A stretch of DNA of 41,971 nucleotides, counting the filler, from an uncultured virus (IMG/VR IMGVR_UViG_2061766007_004303) (Duplodnaviria; Heunggongvirae; Uroviricota; Caudoviricetes). It is 3 parts of one record of this genome, joined end to end, with 100 filler letters (N's around TTAATTAATTAA, not from the genome) between each part and the next. Parts side by side here need not be neighbours in the genome. Positions count along the whole stretch, not along the records: positions 1 to 12,177 come from IMGVR_UViG_2061766007_004303; positions 12,278 to 25,575 come from IMGVR_UViG_2061766007_004303; 1 more part is not named here. One strand, given 5' to 3'. This document shows positions 2,637 to 21,351 of the stretch, one piece after another. The position numbers and the translations under genes are program-made. Numbering within the stretch: the first letter of the stretch is position 1; the number at the start of each line of letters is the position of its first letter. Below the pieces are notes generated by a model. The model was given only the letters and a program-made list of their open reading frames with translations. It was not told the DNA's origin and made no database searches.

Positions 2637-2863
2637 GACTTGCTATTCGGGAATACCATGCTCTGAAAGAATTATCGGTATTTCTTCGCTTTCCGACTTG
2701 ATATTCCGATAACCTCGTTATGAGCAGAGCAAAAAGAAATAATCATGTTTCTTCGATAAACGACTGGATTAAAGTTGTTTATGCGCTTAATTAATAGCAG
2801 AGCGAGGCTGAACGAGGTCGCGCGAACCAACCCAAAAACTCCAAACGACGGAGGAAAACGACG
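2637..2863 (+). promoter_or_regulatory. Cassette regulatory module (upstream GACTTG-N17-GCTC, CTC-N5-GAG, terminal GACTGG-N17-GCTTAATTAA, leader, RBS)
   Basis: Motif halves at 2637/2660 and 2762/2785; closely similar to 5200-5443 but followed by a different gene. Confidence 0.75.
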
Positions 2864-2907
2864 ATGAAAATCATCAGTCAGAACGACATCTGGACGNNNN
2901 NNNNNNC

Positions 2908-3101
2908 GAACAATTCAAACAACTCTGTGCCACACACAACGACAGGAAACTGGTCTCCGGTGCATACAAAGCCTACCAGATGATCAAGCACACCGAGGAC
3001 AGACAGTACCGCCTCGAAGACACCGAAATCGTCATGGAAGACTTCTGCTGGGGCAATGAACGCAAGGACTTCATCGAAAGCCTGCGCGCACTCGGCGTGA
3101 A
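2908..3101 (+). CDS. DUF7698-like protein fragment
   Basis: DTEIVMEDFCW..ERK.FI..LR.LGV, shared with 13627-14286; gaps on both sides. Confidence 0.65.
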
Positions 3102-3190
3102 NNNNNNNNNNCCCTGCGTCATTTCATACGTTAATTGTGTTACATCCTTCATGAATGGTTCATGAGGGCAACAACACAAAGGAGTATGAA

Positions 3191-4438
3191 ATGACTCAAA
3201 AACGAAAGAATGACCGTCCTCCCGCAAAGGAAACCATCGTGTCGAAGCTCATGAAGGCTTCCCCCAAGGTGGTTCCTCACCTCAAAATTCGGAAACCCGT
3301 CAAAAAGAAGGCAGTTCCCATCGGCAAGCCCTCCCCAAGGGCGAAAGAAGACGTTCAAATCTCTATGCCTTCAGAAGAAAACGTCTCCGAAGGGAAGCTC
3401 CCCCAGAGCAAGTCGAAAGAAACAAAAACCACGGCAAAACCTCCTAAGGCCGCAAACGATGAAAAGAAGCCTCTTTCCGGGAAAGACCTCAAGAAGCATT
3501 TTAAGACCAAGGAAATGCCGTGGCAGATGCAACTGCGCCTCGACAAGCTTCGGAACGGGGATACTCAAATGCGGAGGGAATATATTCAGGACATGAATTT
3601 TCACAAATATCGTCCTGAAACAATTACACTCTATCTGACAATGATTTTGAAATTCTTCGCATGCATCTGGAAGAAACCCGAAGAAGTTACCGACAGTGAC
3701 ATTCGAGAAGCCTTTCGTTTTTTTGAAGAAGACCTCCACTGGTCCTGTTCCTATCTGATGCTGATCTTTTCTGCTGTAAAGTTCTTTTTTGATCATACCT
3801 ATCCCAAAAGCTTTAAGACGCTGGAGTTGTATCGGCAACCGCATCCACAGCCAATTCCTGCCGTATTCACGCAGGAAGAAGTTCGACGCATTATGTCATA
3901 TGCAACTGATATTCGCTACCACGCTTTTTTTGTTCTGGTTTACAGTTGTGGCCTTCGTGCAAGAGAAGCAATGCGCGTAAAGTTCTCCGATATTGATGCC
4001 AAGCAAGGGCTTCTGTATGTCATCAATGGAAAAGGCGGAAAAAACAGAATTGTTCCAATTCCCCAAGCGACAATTCATGTTCTGCGTGAAATGTGGTTGA
4101 CACACAAGCACCCAAAACTGCTTTTCCCAGGGTATAAACTCTACAATGTGCAAAAAGGAAAACAGGAAGGAACAACAAACAAGCCGGTTTCATATCAAAC
4201 GCTACTCGTTTACTTCCAAAAGATTTGTGTCCTTGCGGGGATTCGCCAACAAGTAGGGTTGCATACACTGCGCCATTCCTATGCAACACATCTCCTTGAA
4301 GAAGGAATTCCAATCAGAGTTGTTCAGGAATACCTCGGACATCGCTCACTTGCAACAACATCCATTTATCTCCATCTTACTCATAAACTGAAACGGGAAG
4401 GAGCTAATACTCTTGAAAACCTGATGCGTGATCTGTAA
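3191..4438 (+). CDS. Tyrosine recombinase (XerD/Int family, SAM-like N-domain) with a Lys/Pro-rich N-terminal extension
   Basis: Catalytic motifs YSCGLR, GKGGK.R, HTLRHSYATHLLE, LGH...TTSIYLH; GGAG RBS before ATG 3191. Confidence 0.93.
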   Translation: MTQKRKNDRPPAKETIVSKLMKASPKVVPHLKIRKPVKKKAVPIGKPSPRAKEDVQISMPSEENVSEGKLPQSKSKETKTTAKPPKAANDEKKPLSGKDLKKHFKTKEMPWQMQLRLDKLRNGDTQMRREYIQDMNFHKYRPETITLYLTMILKFFACIWKKPEEVTDSDIREAFRFFEEDLHWSCSYLMLIFSAVKFFFDHTYPKSFKTLELYRQPHPQPIPAVFTQEEVRRIMSYATDIRYHAFFVLVYSCGLRAREAMRVKFSDIDAKQGLLYVINGKGGKNRIVPIPQATIHVLREMWLTHKHPKLLFPGYKLYNVQKGKQEGTTNKPVSYQTLLVYFQKICVLAGIRQQVGLHTLRHSYATHLLEEGIPIRVVQEYLGHRSLATTSIYLHLTHKLKREGANTLENLMRDL

Positions 4439-4443
4439 CGCTG

Positions 4444-4661
4444 ATGCCGGACATTTCCGACATCTTCAGAGACAACATTGCCGCATATCCTTACCCTCTT
4501 TCCGAAGTTCAGCGGCATGCTGTTCACGATATTTGCGCCTGCCGAACACCTCACATGAGGCGCTGGGCGATTTATTCATGCCCAAATTGCGGAGAACGGC
4601 ATTTCGCATTCCCTTCCTGTGGCAACCGGAATTGTCCCAAATGCGGACAAGATAAAGTTGC
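4444..4661 (+). CDS. IS91-family transposase N-terminal Zn-binding fragment (variant of 5795-6877)
   Basis: CRT...CPNCG...SCGNRNCPKC; ends at a gap. Confidence 0.85.
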
Positions 4662-4672
4662 NNNNNNNNNNT

Positions 4673-5143
4673 GGAAAAACCTACGACATCAACATCAGAA
4701 GCATCAGAGAGAAAGGCAAAGACGGCATCTATAGACCGAGAACGTCGGTCTGGATTACGTTGGGTGAAGAAGAGGTTCATGACGCCTCGGTGGAACTTGC
4801 CATCTTCAAAGATGTGTGCGAGCTGTTCAACATGTTCCTCAACCCTGGGACAATCGAAGAAGGGTTTACGGAAGGCCCGCACAAAATGATCAAAATCGTA
4901 CAACACGATGGAGCATGGACGATTGCCGAAGCGCTGTTCGAGAAAACAATCTACCATATCAACGTGAAACACTTCGAGGAGCCGAGCAAGTACGGAATCC
5001 AGAACGGCAGAATCTCCAAGCTCTGGATTCGCGAGGAGGGGGAAATCGAACCGCTCGTGAACTACGACCGCGGCTGGGACGTCCGGCCCAGAAGCAAGGC
5101 GGCGAAAGCCATCTATGAAGAAATCCTCGCGATGTACAACTGA
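4673..5143 (+). CDS. DUF7678-like protein, 5'-partial
   Basis: PSKYGIQNGRISKLWIR...NYDRGWDVRP...EEILAMYN. Confidence 0.8.
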   Translation, partial: GKTYDINIRSIREKGKDGIYRPRTSVWITLGEEEVHDASVELAIFKDVCELFNMFLNPGTIEEGFTEGPHKMIKIVQHDGAWTIAEALFEKTIYHINVKHFEEPSKYGIQNGRISKLWIREEGEIEPLVNYDRGWDVRPRSKAAKAIYEEILAMYN

Positions 5144-5199
5144 ACATCAACCAGCCCGGCATCCGCCGGGCAATCTTTTTTCGAGAATTTTCGCATTTC

Positions 5200-5443
5200 G
5201 ATTTGCTATTCAGAAATACCATGCTGTGGAAGTTTCTTCTGTTTTTCTTCGCTTCCAGACTTGCAATTCCGATTACCTCGTTATGAGGCTGTTAAAACCC
5301 CACAAAAAGAAACTGAAAGAATAATTGATATTTCTTCGATAAAAAACTGGATTAACTCGAATTCTACGCTTAATTAATACACAGAGCGAGGCTGAACGAG
5401 GCCGCGCGAACCAAACAAAAACTCCAACTGACGGAGGACAACG
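5200..5443 (+). promoter_or_regulatory. Cassette regulatory module
   Basis: AACTGG 5345 and GCTTAATTAA 5368; CCTCGTTATGAGG palindrome; GGAGG RBS. Confidence 0.75.
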
Positions 5444-5551
5444 ATGATGGAAAACATCAGAAACGACGGAGCCAGAGCGACAGCCCAGGCTGAATCCAGC
5501 GAAGCAACCATGAACGACAACTTCAGCACGAATCGCTGACCGGAGGACATC

Positions 5552-5703
5552 ATGGCAAACAACTGCTTCATCGAAATCCTGCTCGAAACCGAAACCGAGA
5601 CCGAAGCCAAGGAACTCAACAAAATGCTCCAGACAAGCTTCGCAATCGCCCGCCGCGAAAACGTCGGGGCCTTCTTCGGAAACGATAAACGCTACCTCTT
5701 CGA
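5552..5703 (+). CDS. Hypothetical protein, 3'-partial
   Basis: GGAGG RBS, MANNCFIEIL..., cut by a gap. Confidence 0.6.
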
Positions 5704-5794
5704 NNNNNNNNNNAATTTATCTCCATCTTACCCATAAGCTGAAACGGGAAGGAGCTAATACCCTTGAAAACCTGATGCGTGATCTGTAAAATAG

Positions 5795-6877
5795 ATGCCG
5801 GACATTTCCGACATCTTCAGAGACAACATTGCCGCATATCCTTTCCCTCTTTCTGAAGTTCAACGGCATGCTGTCCACGATATTTGCGTCTGCCGAACAC
5901 CTCACATGAGGCGCTGGGCGATTTATTCGTGCCCAAATTGCGGAGAACAGCATTTCGCATTTCCTTCCTGTGGCAACCGGAATTGTCCCAAATGCGGACA
6001 AGATAAAGTTGCGAAATTCCTGGCCAAACAGCAACAAAACTTGCTTCCGGTCAATTATTTCATGATCACGGTTACTATGCCAACGGAAATGCATCGCATC
6101 TGTCGACTCCATCCAAAGACTGTTTTCAATGCGTTCTTTCACGCGGCAGAAGAGAGCATCCGTGAGCTTGCCCGCAATAAAAAGCACCTTGGAGGCGAAA
6201 TTGGTCTTATCGGAACACTACAGACATGGAAAAGGAATGGGGATTACCATCCCCATATCCATTTCCTCGTTCCAGGAGGCGGACTCTCCCCGGATGGCCA
6301 ATACTGGCTCTTCCCGCGAAAAAGAGATTTCTTTATTCCCGCAAGACCGCTTTCAATCTTGGTTCGGGGCAAAATGCACGATGCAATCAGAAAATTGGGG
6401 CTTTGTCCAGAAGTCTCGCCTGATGCATGGAAGAAACACTGGGTTTCTGATTGCTCAAATGTCGGAAATGGAATGTCCAGCTTCAAGTACCTTGCTCCAT
6501 ATATGCAACGGGGCTTTATCTCGAACTCAAGAATTGTTGATTATGACGGAGAAAAAGTGACTTTTTCGTATGTCGAATCGGCAACCAACGCAAAATGTCT
6601 CAGAACAATCAGTGCAATCGAATTCATGCGGTTGTATTTGCAACATGTTCTTCCGTCCGGGTTCCAGAAAACGCGCTATTATGGACTCTTGGGCTCCGCG
6701 AACAGAAAAACCATTCGCGAATTAAGGCTGCTTATACTGTGTTCTCGATTTGCAAGACCCGTTGAAATCCTGGAAGAATTCAAAACCTTAAAACCAATTT
6801 GCCCGAAATGTAAATCTCAGATGGTTTTCTACGGAATGCGAAGTCGTTCCCCACCTGAAATTCTGCAAAGCGGATAG
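5795..6877 (+). CDS. IS91-family (Y2, HUH) rolling-circle transposase
   Basis: Zn-finger CRT/CPNC/SCGNRNCPKC, HUH motif YHPHIHF, Y2 motif YLAPY, LQHVLP.GF.K.RYYG, C-terminal CPKC...RSPP. Confidence 0.93.
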   Translation: MPDISDIFRDNIAAYPFPLSEVQRHAVHDICVCRTPHMRRWAIYSCPNCGEQHFAFPSCGNRNCPKCGQDKVAKFLAKQQQNLLPVNYFMITVTMPTEMHRICRLHPKTVFNAFFHAAEESIRELARNKKHLGGEIGLIGTLQTWKRNGDYHPHIHFLVPGGGLSPDGQYWLFPRKRDFFIPARPLSILVRGKMHDAIRKLGLCPEVSPDAWKKHWVSDCSNVGNGMSSFKYLAPYMQRGFISNSRIVDYDGEKVTFSYVESATNAKCLRTISAIEFMRLYLQHVLPSGFQKTRYYGLLGSANRKTIRELRLLILCSRFARPVEILEEFKTLKPICPKCKSQMVFYGMRSRSPPEILQSG

Positions 6878-7064
6878 CCATATGGAACAACTCCTGACAA
6901 TAAATGTGTTTCGGGCATTTTCATGTTTGAATATGCTCTTAACGGGTTATTGTCTCTTTTCGGAAAAAGCAAGTATTTTCATCATGCAAGACAAAAAAAT
7001 GATGAATGGACTATTCCGAAAGCAGAANNNNNNNNNNAGAATAATCGATATTTCTTCCAAAAAC

Positions 7065-7148
7065 GACTGGCTATTAACGAATAGTACGCTTAATTAATAA
7101 CAGAGCGGGAAGCATAGGGCAACCCAAACAACAACAAGGAGAAACAGC
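7065..7148 (+). promoter_or_regulatory. Cassette terminal motif and leader
   Basis: GACTGG 7065 and GCTTAATTAA 7088, GGGCAACCC hairpin, AAGGAG RBS before ATG 7149. Confidence 0.75.
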
Positions 7149-7348
7149 ATGAAAAAGAGAATCGAAAGCAAGATTCCCGAAACCTTCTGGAACACCGAAG
7201 CCGGNNNNNNNNNNCTGGCCGAGCAAAGGGTCGAAATCTTTTCTCGATTTTTCTTGAAAAAAGATTTGACTTTTCGGAAAAAGCATAACCAAAGATTCTC
7301 CGATAATTCTTTCGAAAAAACACTTGCTTTTCTCATAATCGCGTTACA

Positions 7349-7625
7349 GAAAGAAAGTTCGATATTTCTTTCGTTCTCCGCTTGACTTCTTCCTTTTCTA
7401 TGCTCGAAAGAAAGTTCGATATTTCTTTCGTTCTCGACTTGACAAAGCGTTTTTCCATGCTCGAAAAGAATAATCGATCTTTCTTCGCTTTCTGACTTGA
7501 CATTTCTCTTTTGCCTCATTTCGAGCAGAAGACCGGATTTATTAAAATAATCGTAAGAAAGTTCGATAAAAAGAGCCTTTTATTCGATAAACGACTGGCT
7601 ATTAGCGTGTTTCATGCTTAATTAA
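7349..7625 (+). repeat. Tandem ~57-bp repeats of the cassette motif ending in a terminal copy
   Basis: Unit GAAAGAAAGTTCGATATTTCTTTCGTTCTC..CTTGAC recurs; motif halves 7379/7402, 7436/7459, 7593/7616. Confidence 0.8.
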
Positions 7626-7892
7626 CTAATGCCGAGCGGGATGCACGGGCAACCCGCGAACCAAACAAGAATGCCAANNNNNNNNNNCTTCGTTATGTTA
7701 CGAAGAGGAACAGGCTGTTCTATCGACATGTTTCTCTCGAAGTTATATGCTCGAAGATATAACTATTGAATAATGCGGGAAAAAGGAATCCCCATATAAA
7801 AGAAATATCGCCTTTTCTTGCTCAATTCAAGCGGGTTGATTCATTTCCGACTGGAAATGAATCGAACCAAGAGCTTAATTAANNNNNNNNNN

Positions 7893-8131
7893 CAAAAACG
7901 CGAAATGTTTATTTCTTCGGTCTTTTTTCTGATTTCGATTTGACATTTCCATTTTTCCTCAATTTGAGCATTGCGCAGGGTGCTTTTGTTTTTTATCGAA
8001 CTATTAACGCTTTTTCTTCATAAAAGGACTGGCTATTAACGAAATCCACGCTTAATTAATAAGCGTAGGGCGGCGGGGAAGCCTGCCGCAGAGAACCTCA
8101 AAACAAACAAAGCCAACGAATGGAGGCAAAC
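7893..8131 (+). repeat. ~240-bp regulatory module, copy A
   Basis: Aligns closely with 8773-9009; similarity ends at the ATGAA of the cargo gene. Confidence 0.9.
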
Positions 8132-8491
8132 ATGAAAAAGAAAATGCCGAGACACGATGAACAAGCCGATGCGATGATGCAGATCATCAACCTGATGGAC
8201 GCAGCCTACGCCATCTACAGAGCGACCTACGACGAAGACCCTGTCACCCCCGAAGAAGTCTCAATCGCCCTCGGATGGCATCCGGGGCAACGGGAATGGA
8301 TCAGCGACAAGCCGGATATCGCGAAGGCCCGCGAAGAGCTTGAAAGCATGCTGAACGACACATGGTCGAAGAGAGTCGCGCCCCTGCAAACCGCATTCAT
8401 GAGCATCCTGACCCTCGCCAAGCAGAGGCTTGACGAAACGGACTGGAGACCGTGCCGCTGTGCAACGTGCAGAGGGGACGGGGAAGCCTGA
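8132..8491 (+). CDS. Hypothetical cassette cargo protein (C-terminal CRCATC)
   Basis: GGAGG RBS, ATG 8132; terminator hairpin at about 8507-8530. Confidence 0.8.
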   Translation: MKKKMPRHDEQADAMMQIINLMDAAYAIYRATYDEDPVTPEEVSIALGWHPGQREWISDKPDIAKAREELESMLNDTWSKRVAPLQTAFMSILTLAKQRLDETDWRPCRCATCRGDGEA

Positions 8492-8506
8492 CAAACCACA
8501 AACCAA

Positions 8507-8690
8507 CGCCCGCGCGACAGCGGGCTTTTTCTGCTCGCTTGGGGCTATGTGTCGCGTGACATGTCGACTCGACCTATTAGAAAATGCGACCCCTTATGCT
8601 TACTCGGTCAAAAGGGCATAACTGGCCGTCGTTTGGCGAAATCGATTTTGAAGAGGACAGAGCAAAGCGGGATTATTCTTTTTCGGATAT
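8507..8690 (+). repeat. Conserved non-coding post-terminator module, copy A
   Basis: Similar to 10459-10645 (GGCTATGTGTCGC...GACCTATTA...ATGCGACCCC...GGCATAACTGGCCGT...GACAGAGCAAAGC.GGATTATTCTTTT). Confidence 0.85.
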
Positions 8691-9009
8691 TTCCCGAAAT
8701 AAAACCTGACTTTTCGAAAAAAGCGGAACAAATCTTTCTTCGATAAATCCTCCGAATCCGACTGGATTTATCTAAAAACGCGAAATGTTTATTTCTTCGG
8801 TCTTTCTTCTGATTTCGACTTGATATTTCTCTTTTGCCTCATTCTGAGCATTGCGCAGGGGGCTTTGTTTTTATCGGACTATTAACGCTTTTTCTTCATA
8901 AAAGAACTGGATATTAAACAATTTCACGCTTAATTAATAAACGTAGGGCGGCGGGGAAGCCTGCCGCAGAGAACCTCAAAACAAACAAAGCCAACGAACG
9001 GAGGCAAAC
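8690..9009 (+). repeat. ~320-bp regulatory module, copy B
   Basis: Matches 7893-8131 in its 3' part and 9365-9688 over its length; motif halves 8905/8928. Confidence 0.9.
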
Positions 9010-9312
9010 ATGAAGAAAGCTGAAAAAATCGCAATCGCAACAAAAATCGTCCGGGAAGAAGTCAAGCCCTGGGAACTCGAAATCACGGGAATCGGGACGC
9101 CAGGGAAACCATTCCGAATCGAAACAAACGGCAAGGCCTGGGGTGATGGCTGGAGTGCCGCGGTAATCTGCGAGAAAGGAAAGATTACCGATGTCGATGG
9201 TTCCGGCCGCTACCAAGACATTGAACGGAATGTGAAGTGGGTTAAGGACGTGGCCGAGAAACTCATCAAGGCGAAAATCAGAAACTTCTCACTGTGCGTG
9301 TGCTGGGACTGA
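9010..9312 (+). CDS. Hypothetical cassette cargo protein
   Basis: GGAGG RBS; followed by hairpin GCATGCCCC...GGGGCATGC (9326-9351). Confidence 0.8.
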   Translation: MKKAEKIAIATKIVREEVKPWELEITGIGTPGKPFRIETNGKAWGDGWSAAVICEKGKITDVDGSGRYQDIERNVKWVKDVAEKLIKAKIRNFSLCVCWD

Positions 9313-9364
9313 TTAACTCCAAACTGCATGCCCCGCATAATCGGGGCATGCCCTTTTATTCCTT

Positions 9365-9688
9365 TATTTCCCGGAATTAAACTTGACTTTTCGAAAAAGG
9401 AAGAATGAATCTTTCTTCGATAAATCTTCCGAATCCTGCTTGATTTATCCAAAACTGCGGAATTAATAATTCTTCTGACTTTCTCCGCTTTTTGACTTGA
9501 TATTTCTCTTTTACCTCATTCTGGGTATGGGAAAACGTTTCTTTTATTTTATCGAAATAAAAATGCTCTTTCTTCATAAAATTACTGGCTATTAACGAAA
9601 TCCACGCTTAATTAATAAGCGTAGGGCGGAAGGGAAACCAACCGCAGAGAACCTCAAAAAAAACAAACGCCAACGAACGGAGGCAAAC
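9365..9688 (+). repeat. Regulatory module, copy C
   Basis: Motif halves 9583/9606; leader and RBS similar to copies A and B. Confidence 0.85.
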
Positions 9689-10105
9689 ATGAAGCAAGAA
9701 ACCAAGAACAAAGTGAACGCGGCCGCGTGGCTCGACATGACCTACCTCGAAGGAATCATGAATAGCCTGAAGATGAACATCTCAGACGGATTCTTCGATG
9801 ATGTCGCGGAAATCTTCAGCAGAGCCCGTGACCTGAACGAATCGCAGGCATGGGAGTTCTTCAACGAAACAATGCGAATCGTGTCGGACATCGCGACGAA
9901 AAAGCTCGCGGAGAAAATCGAGTTCAGATACCTCAAACATACCGATGGTGAAACTGTTGATGGGCTGAAAGAGTGGGCAGAAAACGTGGCCTTCTACTTC
10001 GTGAACGGGATGGACGATGTGCGTCCGACAGCAGACACTCTTGATGCAACCATCGTCGAACAGGTCTACAAGGAAACCGAAGAACTTCTCGGGTTCACAG
10101 AATAA
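9689..10105 (+). CDS. Hypothetical acidic cassette cargo protein
   Basis: GGAGG RBS; followed by a GCGA-loop hairpin at 10116-10135. Confidence 0.8.
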   Translation: MKQETKNKVNAAAWLDMTYLEGIMNSLKMNISDGFFDDVAEIFSRARDLNESQAWEFFNETMRIVSDIATKKLAEKIEFRYLKHTDGETVDGLKEWAENVAFYFVNGMDDVRPTADTLDATIVEQVYKETEELLGFTE

Positions 10106-10156
10106 AACAGTCTCGGCCCCGCCGCGAGGCGGGGCATCCCCATCGGAGCACTGAAT

Positions 10157-10447
10157 ATGAAACAGAAAATCATCAAGTACGAAAAACGGACATTCCGACG
10201 TGTGACCAAGACCGAAGCCTTGACTGCCTACATGGCAGGTCGGGACGTTATCATCTGCCCGTGCAGACTGAATCCGGAAAAAACCTGGAAATATCAGGTT
10301 TGGAACCGGGAGTGGCGCAAAGAGTTTGTGATAGATGAAATCGGCATCAGAAACGATTTCCTCGGTCTCGTGGACTCGTTTGCATATTACGTTTGCGGCG
10401 CAAAGGCCGGACTTTATATGTCATACTACATAGAAGTAACCGAGTAA
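10157..10447 (+). CDS. Hypothetical phage-type protein
   Basis: GGAG RBS; terminator GCCCGTC...GGCGGGCTTTTT follows. Confidence 0.75.
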   Translation: MKQKIIKYEKRTFRRVTKTEALTAYMAGRDVIICPCRLNPEKTWKYQVWNREWRKEFVIDEIGIRNDFLGLVDSFAYYVCGAKAGLYMSYYIEVTE

Positions 10448-10458
10448 TTTCGATATGC

Positions 10459-11005
10459 GCCCGTCGGCAATGGCGGGCTTTTTCCGCTCAATTTGGGCTA
10501 TGTGTCGCATGACGCTGGCTTTCGACCTATTAATAAATGCGACCCCCTATGCAGAATCGGACAAATCGGCATAACTGGCCGTTATTTGGCAAAATCGAAA
10601 TTGAAGAAGACAGAGCAAAGCAGGATTATTCTTTTCCGATATTTCTCGGAATTATTCCGAAAAAAGATTGGTTTTTTTGAAAAAAGCATATTCGAAGAAT
10701 CTTTGTTTTTTCTTCTGAAAAGCACTGGATTTATTCAAAACTGAGTTACAGAATCTTTTTCCGTTATTTCTGTGCTTTTCGACTTGACTTCCGCTTGATT
10801 CATGCTCGGAAGAATAAATCGTTTTTCTTTGCTTTTCGACTTGACTTATTCTTTGTTCATGCTCCGACTATCTTTCGTCACTGATTAGATACTTTCCATT
10901 TCCCTCAAACTGAACAGGCATAAAAAAGCGATAAAAACCGCTTTTATTCGTTAATCGACTGGCTATTAACGAATTATGCGCTTAATTAAGTAATGTCGAG
11001 CGGGC
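10459..11005 (+). repeat. Post-terminator module copy B followed by a regulatory module with 57-bp tandem motif copies
   Basis: Motif halves 10781/10804, 10838/10861 and terminal 10957/10980. Confidence 0.85.
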
Positions 11006-11015
11006 NNNNNNNNNN

Positions 11016-12177
11016 TGGTACGGTCAGCTGCACGTACAGCTACTCCCTGCCGACTGCCAGCTCGTCCGTCCTCGGCGGCGTCAAGATCGGAACGAACATC
11101 AGCATCAGTTCCGGCGTCATCAGCGTCGCCAACGGTAGCACCTCGGCCAAGGGCGTTGTTCAGCTCGCTACCGTTGCCGAAGCAACTGCTGGCTCCATTG
11201 AGACGAAAGCCGTCACCCCGAAAGGGCTGAAGACTGAACTCGATAAGAAAGCCAATACGAGCCACACGCATGCCATCTCTGACGTCACCGACCTACAGGA
11301 TGCGCTGGACGGTAAAGCCGGAAGCAGCCACAGCCACGAAATCTCGGATGTCTCCGGCCTGCAGAGCGCTCTCGATGGCAAGCAGGGTACTCTGACCCCT
11401 GGCACGAATATCAGCATCACGAACGGAACCGTCAGCTGCACCTATTCGTATTCTCTGCCNNNNNNNNNNGACCGTCGCCGAAGCAACTACCGGCTCCATT
11501 GAGACGAAAGCCGTCACCCCGAAGGGACTGAAGACCGAGCTCGACAAAAAGGCGAACACCTCGCACACCCATGCGATTTCGGATGTCACCGACCTGCAGG
11601 ATGCACTGGATGGGAAAGCCGGGGCCAGCCACAGCCACGAAATCTCGGACGTCACCGGCCTGCAGACTGCTCTCGATGGCAAGCAGGGTACTCTGACGGC
11701 TGGCACGAATATCAGCATCTCGAACGGAACCGTCAGCTGCACCTATTCGTATTCTCTGCCTGCGGCCACCACCTCGGCACGAGGTGGCGTCGTGGTCAGC
11801 ACCACAGCCTCCAACGGTGTCGCCCTCGCGATCAGCTCCGGTACTGTCAGCGTGGCCGCCACTGCGGCATCCACCACGGCAGTCGGTACGGTCCGCCTCG
11901 CCACAACCACGGAAGCAACCACCGGAACGAGCGAAGCGGTCGCGGTTACCCCGAAGGGGCTGAAGACCGAGCTCGACAAAAAGGCGAACAGCTCCCACAC
12001 GCACAACTACCAGGCCGTGCTTACGGCAGGAAACGGCATCGCGATTTCGAGCAACGTGATTTCCGCTGACATCACCACCACGGCTTCGAATGGTGTTGCC
12101 CTCGCGTGGGATGGATCGACCGACAACGCGAAGAAGATCAAGGTCACGGCAACCGCCGCGACTGCTTCTGCTCGTGG
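11016..12177 (+). CDS. Phage tail-fibre protein fragments (two overlapping variant pieces)
   Basis: Tail repeats HTHAISDVTDLQDALDGKA and HSHEISDVSGLQSALDGK, fibre repeats KGVVQLAT and AVTPKGLK, and LPTASSSVLGGVKIGTNISI. The second piece reads from 11471. Confidence 0.8.
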
Positions 12178-12221
12178 NNNNNNNNNNNNNNNNNNNNNNN
12201 NNNNNNNNNNNNNNNNNNNNN

Positions 12222-12233
12222 TTAATTAATTAA
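12222..12233. other. Artificial contig-joining linker
   Basis: TTAATTAATTAA (stops in all six frames) isolated between long N runs. Confidence 0.9.
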
Positions 12234-12278
12234 NNNNNNNNNNNNNNNNNNNNNNNNNNNNNNNNNNNNNNNNNNNNA

Positions 12279-12581
12279 CAGGCCGCCGCCGAAGTCAGCA
12301 TCGGTGGCTGGGTCAAGTGGGGATACAGCGATGGCGAGTTCATCGATATGTTCCGCTGGCTCAGAAGCAAGGCCAACATCAAAAAGTTCCGCATGGCATA
12401 CGAGGAGCTTATGACCGACCAGTACGGAGAATACGAACTCCACGCGGACGGCGTGATGTGGAACAACTTCCTCGAAGAAAAAGATTTCCCGACCGAGACG
12501 GAGGACTTCGATGCCTACTGCGAAAAGGTCGAAGAAGCCTTCCGCACGAAACCCACCACCAGATTCATCGAGGTCGACTGA
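12279..12581 (+). CDS. Hypothetical acidic protein, 5'-partial
   Basis: Open frame from the gap to TGA 12581, followed by a hairpin. Confidence 0.65.
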   Translation, partial: QAAAEVSIGGWVKWGYSDGEFIDMFRWLRSKANIKKFRMAYEELMTDQYGEYELHADGVMWNNFLEEKDFPTETEDFDAYCEKVEEAFRTKPTTRFIEVD

Positions 12582-12632
12582 ACAGAAAACCAGACCCGGC
12601 GCCAAATGCGCCGGGTAATCAGGAGATGCAAT

Positions 12633-12794
12633 ATGGAATACGAAATTGAACAAATCAACGGAGACAACTGGAGGCCGGGGATGCCGAAGGCCGGATTCCT
12701 CGTCCGATACGGGATCAACGAATTTGGCTGGATGTACTGCCAGACTTTCGCCACACTGGAGGAGGCCGAGGCCTTCGCCGAGGCCATCAAATAA
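12633..12794 (+). CDS. Small hypothetical protein (F.TLEEAEAF motif)
   Basis: AGGAG RBS, MEYEIEQ...; hairpin GGGGAGC-TCCG-GCTCCCC follows. Confidence 0.65.
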   Translation: MEYEIEQINGDNWRPGMPKAGFLVRYGINEFGWMYCQTFATLEEAEAFAEAIK

Positions 12795-13096
12795 TGCCGG
12801 GGAGCTCCGGCTCCCCAATTTTCTCACATGATGCCTTTTCCGATAAGTCAAGTTCAATTTCGAAGAAATCCGAATCTTTTCCGCAGGTTCGTCGGCAGGT
12901 CTCTTCGCCTCCGTCAGGGCTTCCTGTCGCGAGCCTGCGGATTTCATTTCACCATGCAGCCTATGTCAAATTATGCCACACGCCGCAGAGTTATGCCGGA
13001 ACGTGCGTTCATGCGGACAGGGTCGCATGTTTCAAATCGAACCGACTATTCAACCGCTCAAATATCGCGGAACAACCCCCAAATTGGAGAAAAAAC

Positions 13097-13441
13097 ATGA
13101 AAGCTTTATTCATCAATGCCAGTGAACATAGTGTAGCCGCCATTGAAATCGAAAACGATTTGCATGCCATGTACGACAAAATCGGATGCCGCCTCGTGGA
13201 GTTAGTGGAGTACCGAGACGAGCTCATCGTCTGTGACGAAGAATCCCGGCTGAAGCAATGGGAACATGGATTTGCACTTGGTGACTGGCGTATCTGCGGA
13301 AACGCACTCATCCTCGGTGAGGATGAAGAAGGTGACTTCGCGGCCACGAAGCTGACCGCAGAAGACGTTACCAAAGAAATCCGCTTCTTCGGCACAGAAG
13401 AAAAAATGCCGGAACCGGAGATTCACGTAATTATGTTCTGA
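13097..13441 (+). CDS. DUF3846-like protein
   Basis: MKALFI...L..MYDKIGC.LVE...IVCDEE.RLK...ICGNALILG.DEEGDF; GGAG RBS. Confidence 0.75.
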   Translation: MKALFINASEHSVAAIEIENDLHAMYDKIGCRLVELVEYRDELIVCDEESRLKQWEHGFALGDWRICGNALILGEDEEGDFAATKLTAEDVTKEIRFFGTEEKMPEPEIHVIMF

Positions 13442-13467
13442 AAAAGATCGAAGAATCTTCTGATTTC

Positions 13468-13626
13468 GACTGGAAATATTCTAAAGCCATGCTCGCGAAT
13501 AAAAGATTGAATTAAGTTCGATTTAGCCTCGGTTTCGACTGGCTATTAACCAGTTCCATGCTTTATTAAAGATGTGGGCGGGAGAACCGCCACTAAATCG
13601 ACAACCAACCAAACGGAGAAACCAAG
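13468..13626 (+). promoter_or_regulatory. Cassette regulatory module
   Basis: GACTGG/GCTC at 13468/13491; terminal GACTGG/GCTTTATTAA at 13537/13560; GGCGG-GAGAA-CCGCC hairpin. Confidence 0.75.
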
Positions 13627-14286
13627 ATGAACGATGACACGAACACCAAAACCTACCGCCTGCTCAATACTCGTTGCATGGTGAAAAACAAAAACAAGGA
13701 ATATGTGGTCGGATACGAGAACTTGATGAAGCTCGCAAAGAAAGTGGGATACACAGATGTCTGCAAAGTGCAGTCACAGGGCAACGGTTTGACTGGCTAT
13801 CTGGGAACACGTCGCTTTCAGAGAAACTTCGAAGGATGCTTTGCGGAAGAAATCACTGAAGAAGAAGCCAAATCACTCAAAATCATGAATGAAGAACCTC
13901 AATCCAGGAAGTGCTCCGAAGAGCAAGTCAGAATTGCCGCCATCAAGGAATTCGACGCAATCCGCGATGCGGGAAAGGACTGCAATCTGGACAGCGGAGT
14001 GTACAAAGCATACAACGCCTGCGAGGATACCGAATATTTGCAGTACCGAATCGGAGATACCGAAATCGTCATGGAAGACTTCTGCTGGGAGGACGAGCGC
14101 AAAAAATTCATCAAAACCCTGCGAAAGCTCGGCGTGAAATCGATGGTCGTCACAACGTCCTCCATTGATGAAATGCACGAGTTCACGGAGCTTGGGTGCA
14201 GGCTCATTGGTCTCTGCAAAATCTCTCATTGGGACTGCTTCAGCAAACAAACTGTTGAGAAAAAGGGCATCCGATTCGAACTGTAA
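13627..14286 (+). CDS. Protein with a C-terminal DUF7698-like domain
   Basis: EDFCWEDERKKFIKTLRKLGVKSMVVT...ELGCRLIGLCKI...KGIRFEL. Confidence 0.75.
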   Translation: MNDDTNTKTYRLLNTRCMVKNKNKEYVVGYENLMKLAKKVGYTDVCKVQSQGNGLTGYLGTRRFQRNFEGCFAEEITEEEAKSLKIMNEEPQSRKCSEEQVRIAAIKEFDAIRDAGKDCNLDSGVYKAYNACEDTEYLQYRIGDTEIVMEDFCWEDERKKFIKTLRKLGVKSMVVTTSSIDEMHEFTELGCRLIGLCKISHWDCFSKQTVEKKGIRFEL

Positions 14287-14341
14287 CGTCAACCCAAGCG
14301 ACGGGGTGCGAGCCCCGTCGCAAAACATAAAGGAGCAAAAA

Positions 14342-14569
14342 ATGGACAGATTCTTTACACAGAAAACGTGCGACCGCTGCGGAGCTGAACTCAAGGTGAG
14401 GCAGATGTCCCGCTTCAACACAGATGTTTTGTGCCCGACCTGCATTGAGGAGGAGAGGCAGCATCCGGACTACCAGAAGGCGGCTGAAGCCGAGCTCGCC
14501 GCTGTTCGCCGTGGCGACAGAGATTTCCCCGGTATTGGCTGGCCGGGGAAGGATGGACGGGTCAAATGA
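14342..14569 (+). CDS. Small Zn-finger protein of GGCT/amidoligase-type phage clusters
   Basis: MDRFFTQKTCDRCG...MSRFNTDVLCPTC..EE..HPDY..A..AE....RRGD..F.GIG; AAGGAG RBS. Confidence 0.8.
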   Translation: MDRFFTQKTCDRCGAELKVRQMSRFNTDVLCPTCIEEERQHPDYQKAAEAELAAVRRGDRDFPGIGWPGKDGRVK

Positions 14570-14742
14570 AAGTGCGCGTCTGCCATAGATGCGGTACGGT
14601 CGTAAAAAAGTCGTTCGTGAAGGGCTACCCGTGGTTCTGCCCGAAACACTATGAAGACCTGTACGGAATTGAAACCGATATCATCGAGGTTCCAGACCGG
14701 AAGCCTCGGCGAAAGAAAAACAAATCAAGGAGAAACGCATGA
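14566..14742 (+). CDS. Small Zn-ribbon protein (C..C...YPWFCP.H.EDL)
   Basis: ATGA overlaps at both ends; paralogs at 16747 and 18443; below the ORF-track cutoff. Confidence 0.75.
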   Translation: MKVRVCHRCGTVVKKSFVKGYPWFCPKHYEDLYGIETDIIEVPDRKPRRKKNKSRRNA

Positions 14743-14813
14743 GCACAACCGCAGGAATCGGGCTGACGATGCACGATGGAACAATTATCCTTATTTCGTG
14801 TTCATGGAAATAA
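14739..14813 (+). pseudogene. Truncated 5' end of an MST.A.IGMTMPDGTI family gene
   Basis: MSTTAGIGLTMHDGTI matches the starts of 17153 and 18616, then runs without a gap into a regulatory module. Confidence 0.7.
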
Positions 14814-14943
14814 GTTCGATTTAAGTTCGATTGTTCTCGAAAAACGACTGGCTATTCGTGAATAGTACGCTTAATTAATAAGCGAGCGCGGGAAAGACGA
14901 CAGTACCGCAAAGAACAAGAAACCGAACAGAAGGAAACGGGAA
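14811..14943 (+). promoter_or_regulatory. Cassette regulatory module
   Basis: GACTGG 14846 and GCTTAATTAA 14869; nearly identical to 18272-18333. Confidence 0.75.
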
Positions 14944-14979
14944 ATGGAAAAACCAAGAATCGCCGCCCTNNNNNNNNNN

Positions 14980-15316
14980 TATCTTCATCGACGCGAAAAA
15001 CGAAACCGTGAGCATGATCGAGGTCGAAAACAGTCGTCAGGCCATATACGATAAAATCGGCTGCCGGCTTATCCAGATAGTTCCCTTTGCCGGGGAAAAT
15101 ATCGTCTGCGATGAGGAAGGTCGCCTCAAGACGTGGACAGATGGTTTTCAACTTGGCTCATGGCGCATCGTCGGCAACGCGCTCATCGTCGGCGATACCG
15201 AAGACGGAGATTTTGCCGACACGAAACTGTCCATGGACGAGATCATGGAACAGATACGGTTCTTCGACAAGGACGAACCGCTTCCGCCGCCGAGATTCCG
15301 CGTGATCGGGCTGTAA
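14980..15316 (+). CDS. DUF3846-like protein, 5'-partial
   Basis: Paralog of 13097-13441 (YDKIGCRL...IVCDEEGRLK...GNALIVGD.EDGDF). Confidence 0.75.
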
Positions 15317-15414
15317 GAACTTTATCCAAGAAACCTCATCTTATTCTCCGAAAGTGACTTGCGTTAATCAGAAGCCATGCTTAATTAATGTCAGCCACAA
15401 CAGAAAGGAGAAAC

Positions 15415-16046
15415 ATGATTCAACCCATCTTCTACTTCGCCTACGGGTCAAACATGAACCCGAAACGAATGCAAAAACGTTGTCCGGGGGCAGTGCCGCT
15501 CGGCATGGCCAAACTGCCGAACTACCATTTGTCCGAACGTCTCTATGCTGACATCGACTTCAAGGAAGGGTTCTGCGTATATGGCGTTCTCTACTGCATC
15601 TGGGACAAACATATTGAAACGCTGGACTTCTTCGAGGGCTACCCTCGAATCTACCGCAGAATGTGGCTTGCGGTCGAATACCAGAACGAAATCGTTCTTG
15701 CCATGACTTACGAAATGACAGCCGAAACAAAACGGATTCGCGAAGGGCAGCGTTATACAAAAAAATACCGCAGAATCTGCTCAAGGGGCGCAACATTCTT
15801 CAATGTCCCGAATTCGTTTGCCATACGAAAAAAACATCCTGAACTTCAATACCGAAAGGGAATCAGCATGAAAACAGTCAAACTCATCACCTACGGCACA
15901 CTCATGACCGGAGAATGCAACCATCGCTTCTGCGCAAATGCCGTCAACATCACGCCCTGCACAATTACGGGGACGCTCTACGACACTGGCTGGGGCTTCC
16001 CGGCATTCGAACAGACCGGAGACACGGTCGTCCATGCCGAACTCAT
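15415..16046 (+). CDS. Gamma-glutamylcyclotransferase-fold protein(s), two domains in one frame, 3'-partial
   Basis: YFAYGSNM...LDFFEGYP..Y.R (GGCT), then from Met 15868 ITYGTLM.GE.NH...GTLYDTGWGFPA (AIG2-like); preceded by motif halves 15356/15379. Confidence 0.85.
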
Positions 16047-16160
16047 NNNNNNNNNNNNNNNNNNNNNNNNNNNNNNNNNNNNNNNNNNNNNNNNNNNNNN
16101 NNNNNNNNNNNNNNNNNNNNNNNNNNNNNNNNNNNNNNNNNNNNNNNNNNNNNNNNNCCA

Positions 16161-16502
16161 ATGAGAGCCATCAAAATCGATCCCGCAAACAGAACCATCA
16201 AGGAAATCGAGCTCGCCGTCGACCCGAACCGGAGCTTGGGGGAGCTCCGGTCGATCATCGGGGCTGAGGAACTTGAACTCATCCCGCTCGACAAAAGCTT
16301 CAACCTGCTTGCCGACCTTCACGGGGAACAGAAGCCCTGCTTCGGCTTCTGCGATCTCGACGAGCCCGTGGTTCACGGCGTGGCCGTCATCCTCGGCGGC
16401 AGTCCGCGTCGCCTCAGGATGCTTCACGAGAACAAAGCCAGTTTCGACATGATCGTTGACTGGCGCAACGAACAGAATGGAACAATAAATGCCGAATCGT
16501 AA
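16161..16502 (+). CDS. DUF3846-like protein (divergent)
   Basis: MRAIKIDPANRTIKEIEL...L.ELRSIIGAE.LE...HGVAVILG. Confidence 0.6.
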   Translation: MRAIKIDPANRTIKEIELAVDPNRSLGELRSIIGAEELELIPLDKSFNLLADLHGEQKPCFGFCDLDEPVVHGVAVILGGSPRRLRMLHENKASFDMIVDWRNEQNGTINAES

Positions 16503-16746
16503 AGCCATCGTGACTGCACGGAAGGTTCAGCTCGCCTTCCTCATCAANNNNNNNNNNTGACACCGAGGCCGTACAAGCCGGAAAACTCTATGCTGGGCGT
16601 CCAATCACCAGTCGTGAGCAGGCGGATGCCGAATTCTTCGCCCACCTCCCGGACAACCAACTTCATGCCTTCCTGTACATCAAGCAGACCAGGAAGATTT
16701 GCATCCACGTCGAAGCAGTTGAACTTAACTCTCGGAGAAAACGCAA

Positions 16747-16910
16747 ATGAAAATCAGAGTCTGCCATCGATGCAGAACGCGCGTGAAGAAATCGTTTGTG
16801 GTGGGCTATCCGTGGTTCTGCCCGGAACACTACGAAGATTTGTTCGAATTCGAAACCGAGGTCATCGAGGTTCCTGACCGGAAGCCTCGCCGCAAGAAGC
16901 ACAAAGCAAG
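16747..16910 (+). CDS. Small Zn-ribbon protein, 3'-partial
   Basis: VCHRC...GYPWFCPEHYEDL; variant of 18443-18619. Confidence 0.7.
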
Positions 16911-16920
16911 NNNNNNNNNN

Positions 16921-17077
16921 GGCGATGGTGATTACCAACACCTCCAGCAGCCTCTTCGATGACCTGCACGGGTACGCAGAACTCGGATGCAAACTCATCG
17001 GGCTCTGCAAAATCGCACGATGGGATCGCTACGACAAACAGGAAGTCGAGGTCAAGGGAATCCGGTTCGAACTGTAA
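16921..17077 (+). CDS. DUF7698-like C-terminal fragment
   Basis: MVITNTSSSLFDDLHGYAELGCKLIGLCKI...KGIRFEL. Confidence 0.7.
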
Positions 17078-17152
17078 AAGAAATCACCAAGCCGTCGCCT
17101 TCGGGCGGCGGCAACCTCAAATAAAAACCACCAAACGAAATCGAGGCAAAAC

Positions 17153-17593
17153 ATGAGCACAAGTGCAGGTATCGGAATGACAATGCCGGACGGAACAATC
17201 AAGGCTGTCTACCTCCATGGGAGCGGCTACATTGTCGCAGGGGCAGGAGAAACCCTTGCAGAACACTACACTGAACGTGAAAAAGTCGAAAAGCTTATCA
17301 AGCTTGGCTTCCTGAGCAGACTTGAAGAGAAGGTCGACCCTGACCCGGCATTCCCGCATTCGTGGGCACATCCGCAGGAGAATGTAACGGTTGCCTACTA
17401 CAGAGACCGCCACGACCGACCTCTTATGGTTAAAAACTTCAAAGACCGCGGGGAATTCGGAGATGAAGGTGCAGGTCGCTTATCTGCAAGTTACCTGTAC
17501 CTCTTCGAAAACGGACGGTGGCTGGTCAGCCGTCCATACAAAAACCGGGGACTTTGGATGGAAATAAAAGACGCGATTGAAGAGGGGGACTAA
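17153..17593 (+). CDS. Phage-type hypothetical protein (MST...IG....DG.IKAVYLH..GY family)
   Basis: GAGG RBS; conserved AYYRDR and YLYLFENGRW; flanked by twin hairpins. Confidence 0.85.
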   Translation: MSTSAGIGMTMPDGTIKAVYLHGSGYIVAGAGETLAEHYTEREKVEKLIKLGFLSRLEEKVDPDPAFPHSWAHPQENVTVAYYRDRHDRPLMVKNFKDRGEFGDEGAGRLSASYLYLFENGRWLVSRPYKNRGLWMEIKDAIEEGD

Positions 17594-17676
17594 CCTCAAA
17601 TCGAGGCCGTCGCCGAAAGGCGGCGGCTGGCTTTTCAATAAAAGATATTTAAACGGCGGAATTGGAGACATCCACA

Positions 17677-17925
17677 ATGAAACTTATTTATGAAAATCTT
17701 TACGATTTCAAGCCATTTTATGGGATAGACAATTGGGATCGGATTGTTGAGGCGGGAAAAATCGATGCGTTTGACGATTATCTTGAAAACACATACCCAG
17801 ATGGAATCACCGCCACAGGGCTGGATGAACTTCTATGGAACGACAACGAAATGGAGGTAATATTCAAGGAAATCGGAATCGAAACCTCTGAGCATAAAAA
17901 AAAGAGACAGAGAATTCGCAGCTAA
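17677..17925 (+). CDS. Small phage-type protein (YPDGIT.T.L.ELLW family)
   Basis: GGAG RBS, ATG 17677; a variant starts at 19085. Confidence 0.7.
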   Translation: MKLIYENLYDFKPFYGIDNWDRIVEAGKIDAFDDYLENTYPDGITATGLDELLWNDNEMEVIFKEIGIETSEHKKKRQRIRS

Positions 17926-18442
17926 TGCTTTTTCCAAAAAGTCAATTCCTTTTAAGCAGAAAAAAGAGATTATTCTTCCGAACTCAAACGTGGTGGGCAG
18001 CGGCTGAAAAGACAAATAGAATTTGTGCATTCAAAAAAGTGTGCCCTCATCAAATTATGCGAAACATCGCTGAATTATGCCTCTGTCTGCGGTCTTGTGA
18101 TAAGGGGCGCATGTTTCAAATCGAAACGATTATTTAGCACCTCAATTTTCGGCCGTTTGACCCCCAAAAAGTCCAAAGCAGTGAGAAAATAATAAGGACA
18201 TGCTGATTCTGAAAAAAAAGGAATATTTATGTTTTTTGACTGGATTTATCAAACAAACATGCTCCCCAGATTAAGTTCGATTTAAGTTCGATTATTCTCG
18301 AAAAACGACTGGCTATTCGCGAATAGTACGCTTNNNNNNNNNNTTTCGTTATGTTACGAAGAGGAACAGGCTGTTCTATCGACATGTTTCTCTCNNNNNN
18401 NNNNATTGAAACAGTTGAACTTAGATCGAGGAGAAAACGCAA

Positions 18443-21194: not shown

Positions 21195-21204
21195 NNNNNN
21201 NNNN

Positions 21205-21341: not shown

Positions 21342-21351
21342 NNNNNNNNNN

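Follow-up and report, generated by a model that had tools for sequence, protein, structure and literature searches.

A two-box sequence motif that recurs 13 times in the DNA of an uncultured tailed virus is, in our reading, the core of a portable promoter-plus-leader module. The DNA analyzed (hereafter, the window) is a stretch of 41,971 nucleotides joined from parts of the IMG/VR record IMGVR_UViG_2061766007_004303, and the motif in its usual form is GACT(G/T)G, a 17-nt spacer, and GCTTAATTAA. We propose, at a probability of roughly 0.6, that the two boxes are the center of a ∼95-nt module that heads each unit of a hypervariable accessory arm and that is probably read with a phage factor; like the other claims of mechanism below, this one is drawn from sequence comparison. 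A preliminary description had taken the motif for the noncanonical promoter of a dedicated regulon. Its position, orientation, and fixed geometry are promoter-like and it is confined to the element, and a dedicated promoter class is plausible, whereas the factor that would read it is a predicted one.

All 13 copies are present at the positions first given for them, and all lie on the plus strand (Table 1). The exact pattern GACTKG-N15-19-GCTTAATTAA matches eight of these sites, each on the plus strand and with 17 or 18 nt between the boxes, and it is absent from 100 dinucleotide-preserving shuffles of the window. With at most one mismatch allowed, GCTTAATTAA matches 13 times in the window against 1.99 expected; 12 of these matches are on the plus strand, and the single minus-strand match is a palindromic overlap. 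The offset between box starts is 23 nt in 12 of the 13 copies, as had been claimed, and 24 nt in the copy at 7849. A Shine-Dalgarno (SD) sequence and a start codon follow 26-73 nt past the right box in all nine copies with N-free downstream sequence, in keeping with the ∼25-75 nt described, and the other four copies are interrupted by Ns. The spacer had been described as variable; it does vary, but it is not free, and an alignment of the copies reveals a semiconserved CTATTAACGAA within it. In a profile search of the window, the strong copies are confined to 2.7-18.3 kb and a single weak match lies past them (33378-33424, E 0.94), in line with its described absence from the restriction-modification, insertion sequence (IS), and Sel1 regions. 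The flanks differ among all 13 copies, which map to distinct loci in gap-free relatives. As judged by these flanks, the copies are not alleles of one or two loci, an objection that the preliminary description had itself raised.

The window contains 1211 N in 55 runs, mostly N10 (∼45 N10 gaps), and the two N44-TTAATTAATTAA-N44 blocks at 12178-12277 and 25576-25675 look like six-frame-stop linkers joining concatenated contigs. By blastn, the two flanks of a gap can map to overlapping coordinates of a relative, G1 (446-658 and 669-1268; 11017-11459 and 11471-12177). Because gap flanks overlap in this relative and the window is, by these signs, a patchwork scaffold that is partly redundant at its gaps and unreliable in piece order, the order of its pieces is not usable as evidence, and the anatomy of the module was taken instead from two N-free relatives, G1 and G2. 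G1 is contig C12 (70.6 kb) of G001, a rumen metagenome-assembled genome (MAG) of 3.2 Mb, and G2 is an IMG/VR record of 98.5 kb (CheckV 100%); a third relative, G3, is a 43.7-kb fragment, also an IMG/VR record. The assembly-wide motif scans were likewise made on relatives of the window genome. G1 is collinear with G2, and the window is collinear with G2 from ∼44.7 to 94 kb, so the window shows the accessory half of the phage only. Pfam scans of G2 give the gene order replication module, S24 repressor-like gene, lambda-type portal, head-tail joining, tape measure, and tail-repeat protein, followed by the motif region at ∼46.8-54.1 kb. Past this region the arm carries methyltransferases, a DISARM-like set (SNF2, helicase, MZB/DUF1998, PLD), an AAA_5 and DUF2357 pair, a kinase, and Sel1 and ankyrin proteins. 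The element is, by its gene content, a temperate-looking tailed phage or prophage of ∼98 kb from uncultured ruminant-gut bacteria, and the window stretch 7893-11005 is present in ruminant or animal-gut metagenome runs from 12 studies.

In the alignment, the boxes are the most conserved part of a longer unit, with conservation reaching ∼30 nt upstream and ∼45 nt downstream. Across 26 unique copies aligned over 93 columns (68% mean identity), ACTnG and GCTnnATTnA are invariant. The unit runs from an A/T-rich stretch, which carries short variable hairpins or TCGA-containing repeats, through (a/c)GACTGG, the semiconserved spacer CTATTAACGAA..., GCTTAATTAA(t), a GC stem (GAGCGGG ... CCCGCGAACC), and an A-rich leader to GGAGG and ATG. 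For the leader stem, assessed as a hand-set stem of five pairs, 80% of cells pair; sliding the pairing lowers this to 26-44%, and five cells are compensatory. RNAalifold predicted no consensus structure for the leaders, the loop lengths being misaligned. Two or three partial left-half copies also lie upstream of some full modules together with a second repeat, ttttcgacTTGACTt...gattcatgctc (window 10600-10930; G1rc 59100-59440; G2 46860-47000).

The gap-free array of G1 has nine copies on one strand within 10 kb. Each is followed by an SD-ATG, at a distance from the end of the motif of 65-72 nt in eight copies and 174 nt in the ninth, and then by one to five small open reading frames (ORFs). 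Terminator-like hairpins stand in seven of the eight intervals between successive motifs, and the next motif begins ∼100-400 nt past the last ORF or terminator, so that the earlier claim of a motif heading small-gene units holds in this relative. The cargo includes DUF7678, DUF3846, and DUF7698 proteins and a GGACT/AIG2-like protein; other products match PHROG families of unknown function or nothing, and of two cargo proteins searched in the Protein Atlas, one had no match and the other matched DUF7678 viral clusters alone. Cassette content varies among G1, G2, G3, and the window, and the units of the array are co-oriented with the tail genes upstream.

On the reading that we favor, the A/T-rich tract, which resembles an UP element, would precede a −35-like box (AC-TGGCTA), a rigid 16/17-nt spacer, and a −10-like box (GC-TTAATT-AA). 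Transcription is predicted to start a few bases past the −10-like box, so that the RNA would begin with the GC stem-loop, probably a stabilizer, followed by the A-rich leader, GGAGG, and ATG. Each module would then drive one to five small ORFan genes, most units would end in an intrinsic terminator, and the array would amount to a string of moron-like units. A conserved GC stem-loop with an A-rich leader would also suit an element that works at the level of RNA, serving processing or stability in a read-through transcript, or else an insulator or multiframe-stop spacer, with the transcription start located elsewhere; GCTTAATTAAT has TAA in two frames, and the common orientation of the units and the tail genes fits as well. 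The terminator-like hairpins of G1, however, make it unlikely that read-through feeds all units. Conservation is highest ahead of the hairpin, in two boxes of rigid spacing, and an Rfam scan of the window finds no family at the motif and a tRNA alone. We regard an RNA-level or spacer function as very improbable.

Scans of the relatives place the motif on the element. In G001, all nine matches with at most one mismatch fall on the phage contig C12, and the reversed-pattern control gives 0. Among 41 related genomes, six have any match, and recognizable, unit-like copies occur in three (G001, G011, and G006). In IMG/VR, the motif occurs in two records, G2 and G3. A scan of a genome collection gave 73 loci, with the extended unit at nine loci in four records only: six in C12, one each in two yak-rumen MAGs, and one in a MAG labeled Victivallales. 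Most of the 73 matches are due to chance, and a block of near-identical ones is the transfer-messenger RNA (tmRNA) gene in three of the three loci tested (RF00023, 149-157 bits); the block comprises L009, L037, L060, and ∼20 similar loci. Matches of this block were seen in Planctomycetota and other MAGs, among them Pirellulales, Kuenenia, and some MAGs labeled Chitinophagaceae, and near-identical tmRNA loci across different phylum labels may point to bin contamination. Within the element, the profile search puts strong copies in one arm only of G1, G2, and the window; the relaxed pattern ACTKG-N16-18-GCTW gives no copy before the structural genes, and none was seen by eye in their intergenic regions.

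The flanks on the two sides of the motif appear to recombine independently between assemblies. The copy at 13537 is 100% identical upstream to G1 63488 and unrelated to it downstream, the blastn match stopping exactly at 13569. The copy at 14846 has a downstream leader that resembles G1 63488 and a different upstream side, as read by eye from flanks that include an N run, and G2 48898 shares 90% identity with G1 59468 downstream and 68% upstream. A metagenome scan with a stricter pattern found 57 copies on ∼40 contigs, with up to five per contig. When these are added to 25 copies found in G1, G2, and the window, the total of 82 groups into 23 clusters by downstream flank and 27 by upstream flank. 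Both flanks are usable in 66 copies, which display 30 distinct flank combinations; more than one upstream partner is found in 6 of 22 downstream clusters, and more than one downstream partner in 6 of 24 upstream clusters. In the DNA run X3, contig joints lie at or ≤15 nt from the upstream edges of three copies, and loose ends lie exactly at the downstream edges of two; these joints at a repeat are a hint and can be assembly effects. Because the module is repeated, we infer that it would be the site at which units are exchanged between phages via homologous recombination.

Breaks in homology at the motif edges, with the X3 joints and loose ends at the same edges, could instead mean that the boxes are no promoter but the target of a recombinase: a site of site-specific recombination or a cassette boundary, of integron type or at the end of a transposon. 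The right box contains the palindrome TTAATTAA, and the window array includes a Xer-like recombinase and an IS91 transposase (Table 1). G1, however, has nine copies with equal junction behavior and, by blastn, no counterpart of the integrase or IS91 piece in its array. The window recombinase scores 142.5 bits against the 265-bit cutoff for integron integrases (TIGR02249), and the motif is asymmetric, without an attC-like imperfect inverted repeat. A fixed distance and orientation to the SD-ATG, an UP-like tract, and a leader hairpin are not required by such a site, and contig joints at a repeat of at least 33 nt can arise in assembly. A recombinase-recognized site is, in our estimate, highly unlikely.

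To place the boxes against the promoters of the host, we drew 63 upstream regions from a 400-kb portion of G001 that excludes the phage contig. These regions contain TATAGT 10 times (0.6 expected), TATATT 14 times (1.3 expected), TTGAAA 13 times (2.4 expected), and ACTTGA 8 times (1.3 expected), and the best host sites read (a)C-TTGAAA or TTGACT, 16/17 nt, TGn-TATAGT or TATATT. GACTGG occurs in none of them, against 2.2 expected, which, with all nine G001 matches on the phage contig, speaks against the idea that the motif is a normal host promoter. A host-type promoter also precedes the S24 repressor-like gene of G2, and the ordinary promoters reported in the window at 33405 (before a tRNA gene), 35019, 38691, and 41660 are present (TTGAnn or TTGTTT, 16/17 nt, TATATT or TATAAT). 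Because promoters of canonical type thus occur both in the host and elsewhere on the element, the cassette motif would form a separate promoter class. A consensus scan found no enrichment of canonical sigma-70-like sites in the G1 array (9 found against 10.9 expected).

The unit model also matches host-type promoters in related genomes (G006, G008, and G011), which share the left half tttttcggaaacg-GACTGG-aaaa and have TATAGT or TATATT 19-20 nt after GACTGG. When set in the host register, the motif reads AC-TGGCTA / 16 nt / GC-TTAATT-AA. It agrees with the host promoters in its A-tracts and at C-36, T-35, G-33, G-14, C-13, T-12, A-9, T-8, T-7, and A-6, and it disagrees at −34 (G), −32, and −31 and in an AT-to-TA swap at −11/−10 that leaves T at −11. 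Compared in alignment, the context of the host's own promoters (A-tracts, C-36, GC before the −10, A after it) is present, and part of the apparent strangeness of the motif goes, at the level of aligned bases, once the host register is applied. The term noncanonical thus applies to the motif in part only. The features of a canonical sigma-70/sigma-A promoter (TTGACA-16-18-TATAAT, with A-11 and T-7) are absent: TGGCTA / 16 nt / TTAATT fits the consensus at 3/6 + 3/6 positions with T at −11, and the alternative register, TGGCTA / 17 nt / TAATTA, has A at −7. Among 53 unique right-box contexts, judged by eye to be true copies out of 141 candidates from a loose filter, 45 read TTAATT, three TAAATT, one TATATT, and one CATATT. 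A at −11 is the base most needed by sigma-70-type factors, and an invariant T there should cripple a sigma-A promoter; it is mainly for this invariant T that we expect a dedicated factor.

The same data bear on whether the modules are instead ordinary moron-type promoters for host sigma-A, read by the host RNA polymerase alone, constitutively or from the prophage, with odd bases that result from common descent and gene conversion. The register and flanks match the host, related cassettes have TAAATT or TATATT at the equivalent place, predicted terminators would insulate each unit as in morons, and no regulator is consistently linked to the motif. T at −11 is nevertheless kept in 45 of the 53 contexts, the promoters of G001 are strongly canonical and lack GACTGG in all 63 regions, and drift would not keep two nonconsensus boxes invariant amid a varying spacer and varying flanks. 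Reading by host sigma-A alone is, in our judgment, unlikely.

Several other promoter or operator types were considered and set aside. A sigma-54 promoter was rejected by eye, there being no GG/GC at 10-nt spacing, and so was a sigma-28 promoter. For a T7-type single-subunit promoter, no such polymerase appeared in the Pfam scans. A ComX-type box was rejected by eye (GAAT is found in part of the spacers only), and a repressor operator was rejected because the switch region ahead of the S24 repressor-like gene in G2 lacks TTAATTAA. In G1, all nine TTAATTAA sites are motif copies.

A candidate for the phage factor is encoded by a gene outside the range covered by the window. The G2 protein has 198 aa (G2 19486-20079; L134:984-1580, minus strand), matches Sigma70_r2 (PF04542) at 25.9 bits against a cutoff of 24, and has a C-terminal helix-turn-helix, and its G1 homologue has 206 aa (C12 46884-47501; L135:2385-3005, plus strand). 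The gene is part of a syntenic early operon, just upstream of the DUF3799 exonuclease gene. The G1 and G2 proteins match each other at E 1e-11. Further homologues are found in G011 (three), in G008 and G022 (both at E ∼1e-33), and in G033. A profile of five homologues matches solved extracytoplasmic function (ECF) sigma factors at E ∼2e-6 over both domains (positions 45-174), and all five match TIGR02937, under its curated cutoff; when single sigma proteins were searched against viral contigs, G2 itself or nothing was returned. Judged by these matches, the G1/G2 protein is a divergent ECF-like candidate sigma factor with sigma-2 and sigma-4 domains. Sigma gene and motif are both present in G1, G2, and G011, and G006 has two strong motif copies with a weak sigma match; its contig C6 has 1.5 kb of phage-like DNA at its end and is uninformative on sigma. 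All of the records in this co-occurrence comparison except G2 are fragments or fragmented MAGs. The earlier suggestion of an element-encoded sigma factor or activator therefore gains an ECF-like candidate in G1 and G2, whereas its link to the motif is putative and the co-occurrence is uneven.

A number of observations weigh against the reading that we favor. The sigma proteins of G1 and G2 have just 26% identity, though the motifs of the two are almost the same; sigma homologues in G008 and G022 go with weak motif matches only; and in G3, which does have motif copies, a sigma gene is missing both from the 520 nt that precede the exonuclease gene and from the rest of the 43.7 kb. In temperate phages, small sigma-like proteins are known to activate late operons, which would be a different target. 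Neither −10 register has both key bases, since TTAATT is without A-11 and TAATTA is without T-7, and the rare canonical −10 variants (TAAATT three times, TATATT once) suggest that the family may be read by host sigma-A. Similarity among the copies could come partly from homogenization by recombination and not from selection on the boxes. The runs labeled as RNA consist of assembled contigs; X17, with coverage in all 30 bins, may be DNA, and X19 (polyA RNA) gives five short, poor matches.

Because the boxes are invariantly wrong at T-11 and G-34 in the host register, a phage factor probably sets the specificity of the proposed module. That this factor is the phage's own ECF-like sigma is a tentative suggestion, to which we give clearly less than even odds; that it is another phage regulator acting with host sigma-A is more doubtful than reading by host sigma-A alone, and what remains of the odds falls to the module not being a promoter. 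The most extended version, in which the phage ECF-like sigma would read a sigma-A-shaped promoter with T at −11 and switch on at least nine ORFan units as one regulon, the array being an integrase-free exchange platform beside a defense arm, with homologous recombination at the shared promoter, is speculative and, we think, improbable.

Table 1. Motif copies and other features of the window (positions along the whole stretch)
Position	Strand	Feature	Downstream sequence or context	Relation to relatives
2762..2794	+	Motif copy GACTGG-N17-GCTTAATTAA	Hairpin ∼2802-2823; SD 2850; ATG 2864; ORF N-cut at 2897	Upstream flank 97% identical to G1 copy at g1rc 61030
5345..5377	+	Motif copy AACTGG-N17-GCTTAATTAA	Hairpin ∼5386-5407; SD 5433; ATG 5444; 31-aa ORF	Both flanks 100% identical to G1 copy at 61858
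7065..7097	+	Motif copy, exact	Hairpin ∼7107-7125; SD 7137; ATG 7149; 78-aa ORF with N10 inside	
7593..7625	+	Motif copy, exact	GAGCGGG...CCCGC leader hairpin; N cut downstream at 7678	Upstream flank 90% identical to G2 copy at 51991
7849..7882	+	Motif copy, 18-nt spacer	N10 gap directly after	
8027..8059	+	Motif copy, exact	Hairpin 8068-8089; SD 8122; ATG 8132; 119-aa ORFan ending 8491	
8905..8937	+	Motif copy, left box AACTGG	Hairpin 8946-8967; ATG 9010; 100-aa ORFan ending 9312	
9583..9615	+	Motif copy, left box TACTGG	Hairpin ∼9625-9645; ATG 9689; 138-aa ORFan ending 10105; then ORFs 10157-10447 and 10493-10744	
10957..10989	+	Motif copy, exact	Right box widened to near-palindrome CTTAATTAAG; N cut downstream at 11006	
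13537..13569	+	Motif copy, right box at 13560 is GCTTTATTAA	Hairpin 13576-13592; ATG 13627; 219-aa DUF7698 protein ending 14286	Homology breakpoint at 3′ edge
14846..14878	+	Motif copy, exact	Hairpin ∼14888-14909; ATG 14944; ORF N-cut at 14970	
15356..15388	+	Motif copy, left box GACTTG	Short leader without hairpin; ATG 15415; GGACT/AIG2-like protein ending 16164 (N111 inside)	
18307..18333	+	Motif copy, right box at 18330 cut by N10 past GCTT	Profile E 3.8e-11	
3155..4438		Xer-like tyrosine recombinase	In array; under all curated cutoffs	
5795..6877		IS91-family transposase	In array; 313.7 bits against cutoff of 125	
19476..24817		Defense-type genes (Pfam domains only)	m5C methyltransferase with EcoRII-N protein; 850-aa N6 methyltransferase	
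33450..33524		tRNA gene	Rfam 62.8 bits; TTGATT-16-TATATT promoter upstream at 33405	
33590..35163	−	IS3-type transposase pair	Adjoins tRNA gene	

The recombinase and IS91 pieces of the window are set apart by N gaps and a cassette. In G2, defense-type genes lie at 60.5-70.9 and 82-86 kb (L101, L102) and comprise an m5C methyltransferase, the DISARM-like set, Vsr, and the AAA_5 and DUF2357 pair, which is McrBC-like, all assigned from Pfam domains only. The early region is, by gene order, rearranged between G2 and G3. In G3 (L233-L235), the portal gene comes immediately after the early operon (exonuclease to the G2 left end) and shares its strand; in G2, the early operon is inverted, and the sigma, repressor-like, and methyltransferase genes lie between it and the portal.

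If the module is what we propose, mobile regulatory cassettes, so far described in lytic T4-type phages, would also be present in a tailed phage that looks temperate and comes from an uncultured gut lineage. The module could also serve as a sequence tag for accessory genes, possibly for counter-defense or host takeover, in rumen metagenomes, where with the reference copies it tags the 23 downstream clusters. Should a phage sigma read the boxes, they would provide a compact orthogonal promoter/sigma pair with a sigma-70-family −10 that lacks A at −11. Should host sigma-A alone read them, the array would be an ordinary but tidy case of promoter-mediated module shuffling.

Some known systems resemble the array in part. 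The idea of a promoter active on single-stranded DNA, of the Frpo type found in the leading region of plasmids, does not hold here: the element is a tailed phage and not conjugative, and the hairpins are short and variable and do not join the two boxes. With an integron, the array has in common small co-oriented cassettes whose function is unassigned and a repeated boundary element as the point of exchange. An integron array was rejected because no integron integrase scores above the cutoff and no attC-like repeat is present, and integron cassettes are mostly promoterless, whereas here each unit has a promoter-like module and, mostly, a predicted terminator. Mycobacteriophage stoperators and start-associated sequences are likewise short, asymmetric intergenic motifs in many copies oriented with transcription, but they are 13-bp single boxes that act as repressor sites or are linked to translation, in contrast to the two-box promoter layout and leader described here.

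The comparison with ECF and other alternative-sigma regulons rests on two conserved boxes at rigid spacing, a defined gene set, and a small two-domain sigma-like protein from the element. ECF promoters usually have a CGT-like −10 and an AAC-type −35, whereas the rumen-phage motif keeps the skeleton of a sigma-A promoter, and the known phage sigma-like activators act on one late promoter rather than on an array of accessory units. Morons of lambdoid phages, from the work of Hendrix and colleagues, are reportedly genes with their own promoter and terminator inserted between phage genes. The units described here would similarly be self-contained sets of predicted promoter, gene or genes, and terminator downstream of the tail genes, with cargo dispensable for the virion. 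Classical morons are single and have unrelated promoters, in contrast to at least nine tandem units that share one nearly identical predicted promoter-leader module.

Among described systems, the nearest is the promoter early stem-loop (PeSL) elements of T4-type phages. PeSLs combine an AT-rich tract, a strong sigma-70-like early promoter, and a stem-loop, occur as ∼50 repeats, mostly before ORFans in hyperplastic regions, and mediate modular shuffling (Arbiol et al. 2010, PMC2839356; Comeau et al. 2014, PMC4122927). The rumen-phage module likewise joins an AT-rich tract, a predicted promoter, a stem-loop, and an SD and start codon into a composite cassette before the ORFans of a hypervariable region, at a putative point of exchange. 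Small genes of unassigned function follow its copies in G1 (nine, within 10 kb) and in the window (13), the stem-loop is supported by the pairing analysis, and recombination between copies is suggested by the discordant flank partners and the breakpoint at 13569. Three differences emerge. PeSL promoters fit the sigma-70 consensus of E. coli, whereas at key positions the rumen-phage boxes differ from the host's canonical promoters. PeSL stem-loops are terminators at various positions, whereas the stem-loop here has no U tract and is part of the 5′ leader, and the terminators are separate. PeSLs occur in lytic T4-like myoviruses, and the present phage looks temperate, encodes a lambda-type portal and a tape measure, and has a rumen host that is uncultured. 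By analogy, the module would be a mobile promoter-leader cassette of the phage accessory region that is PeSL-like in its layout, location, and exchange.

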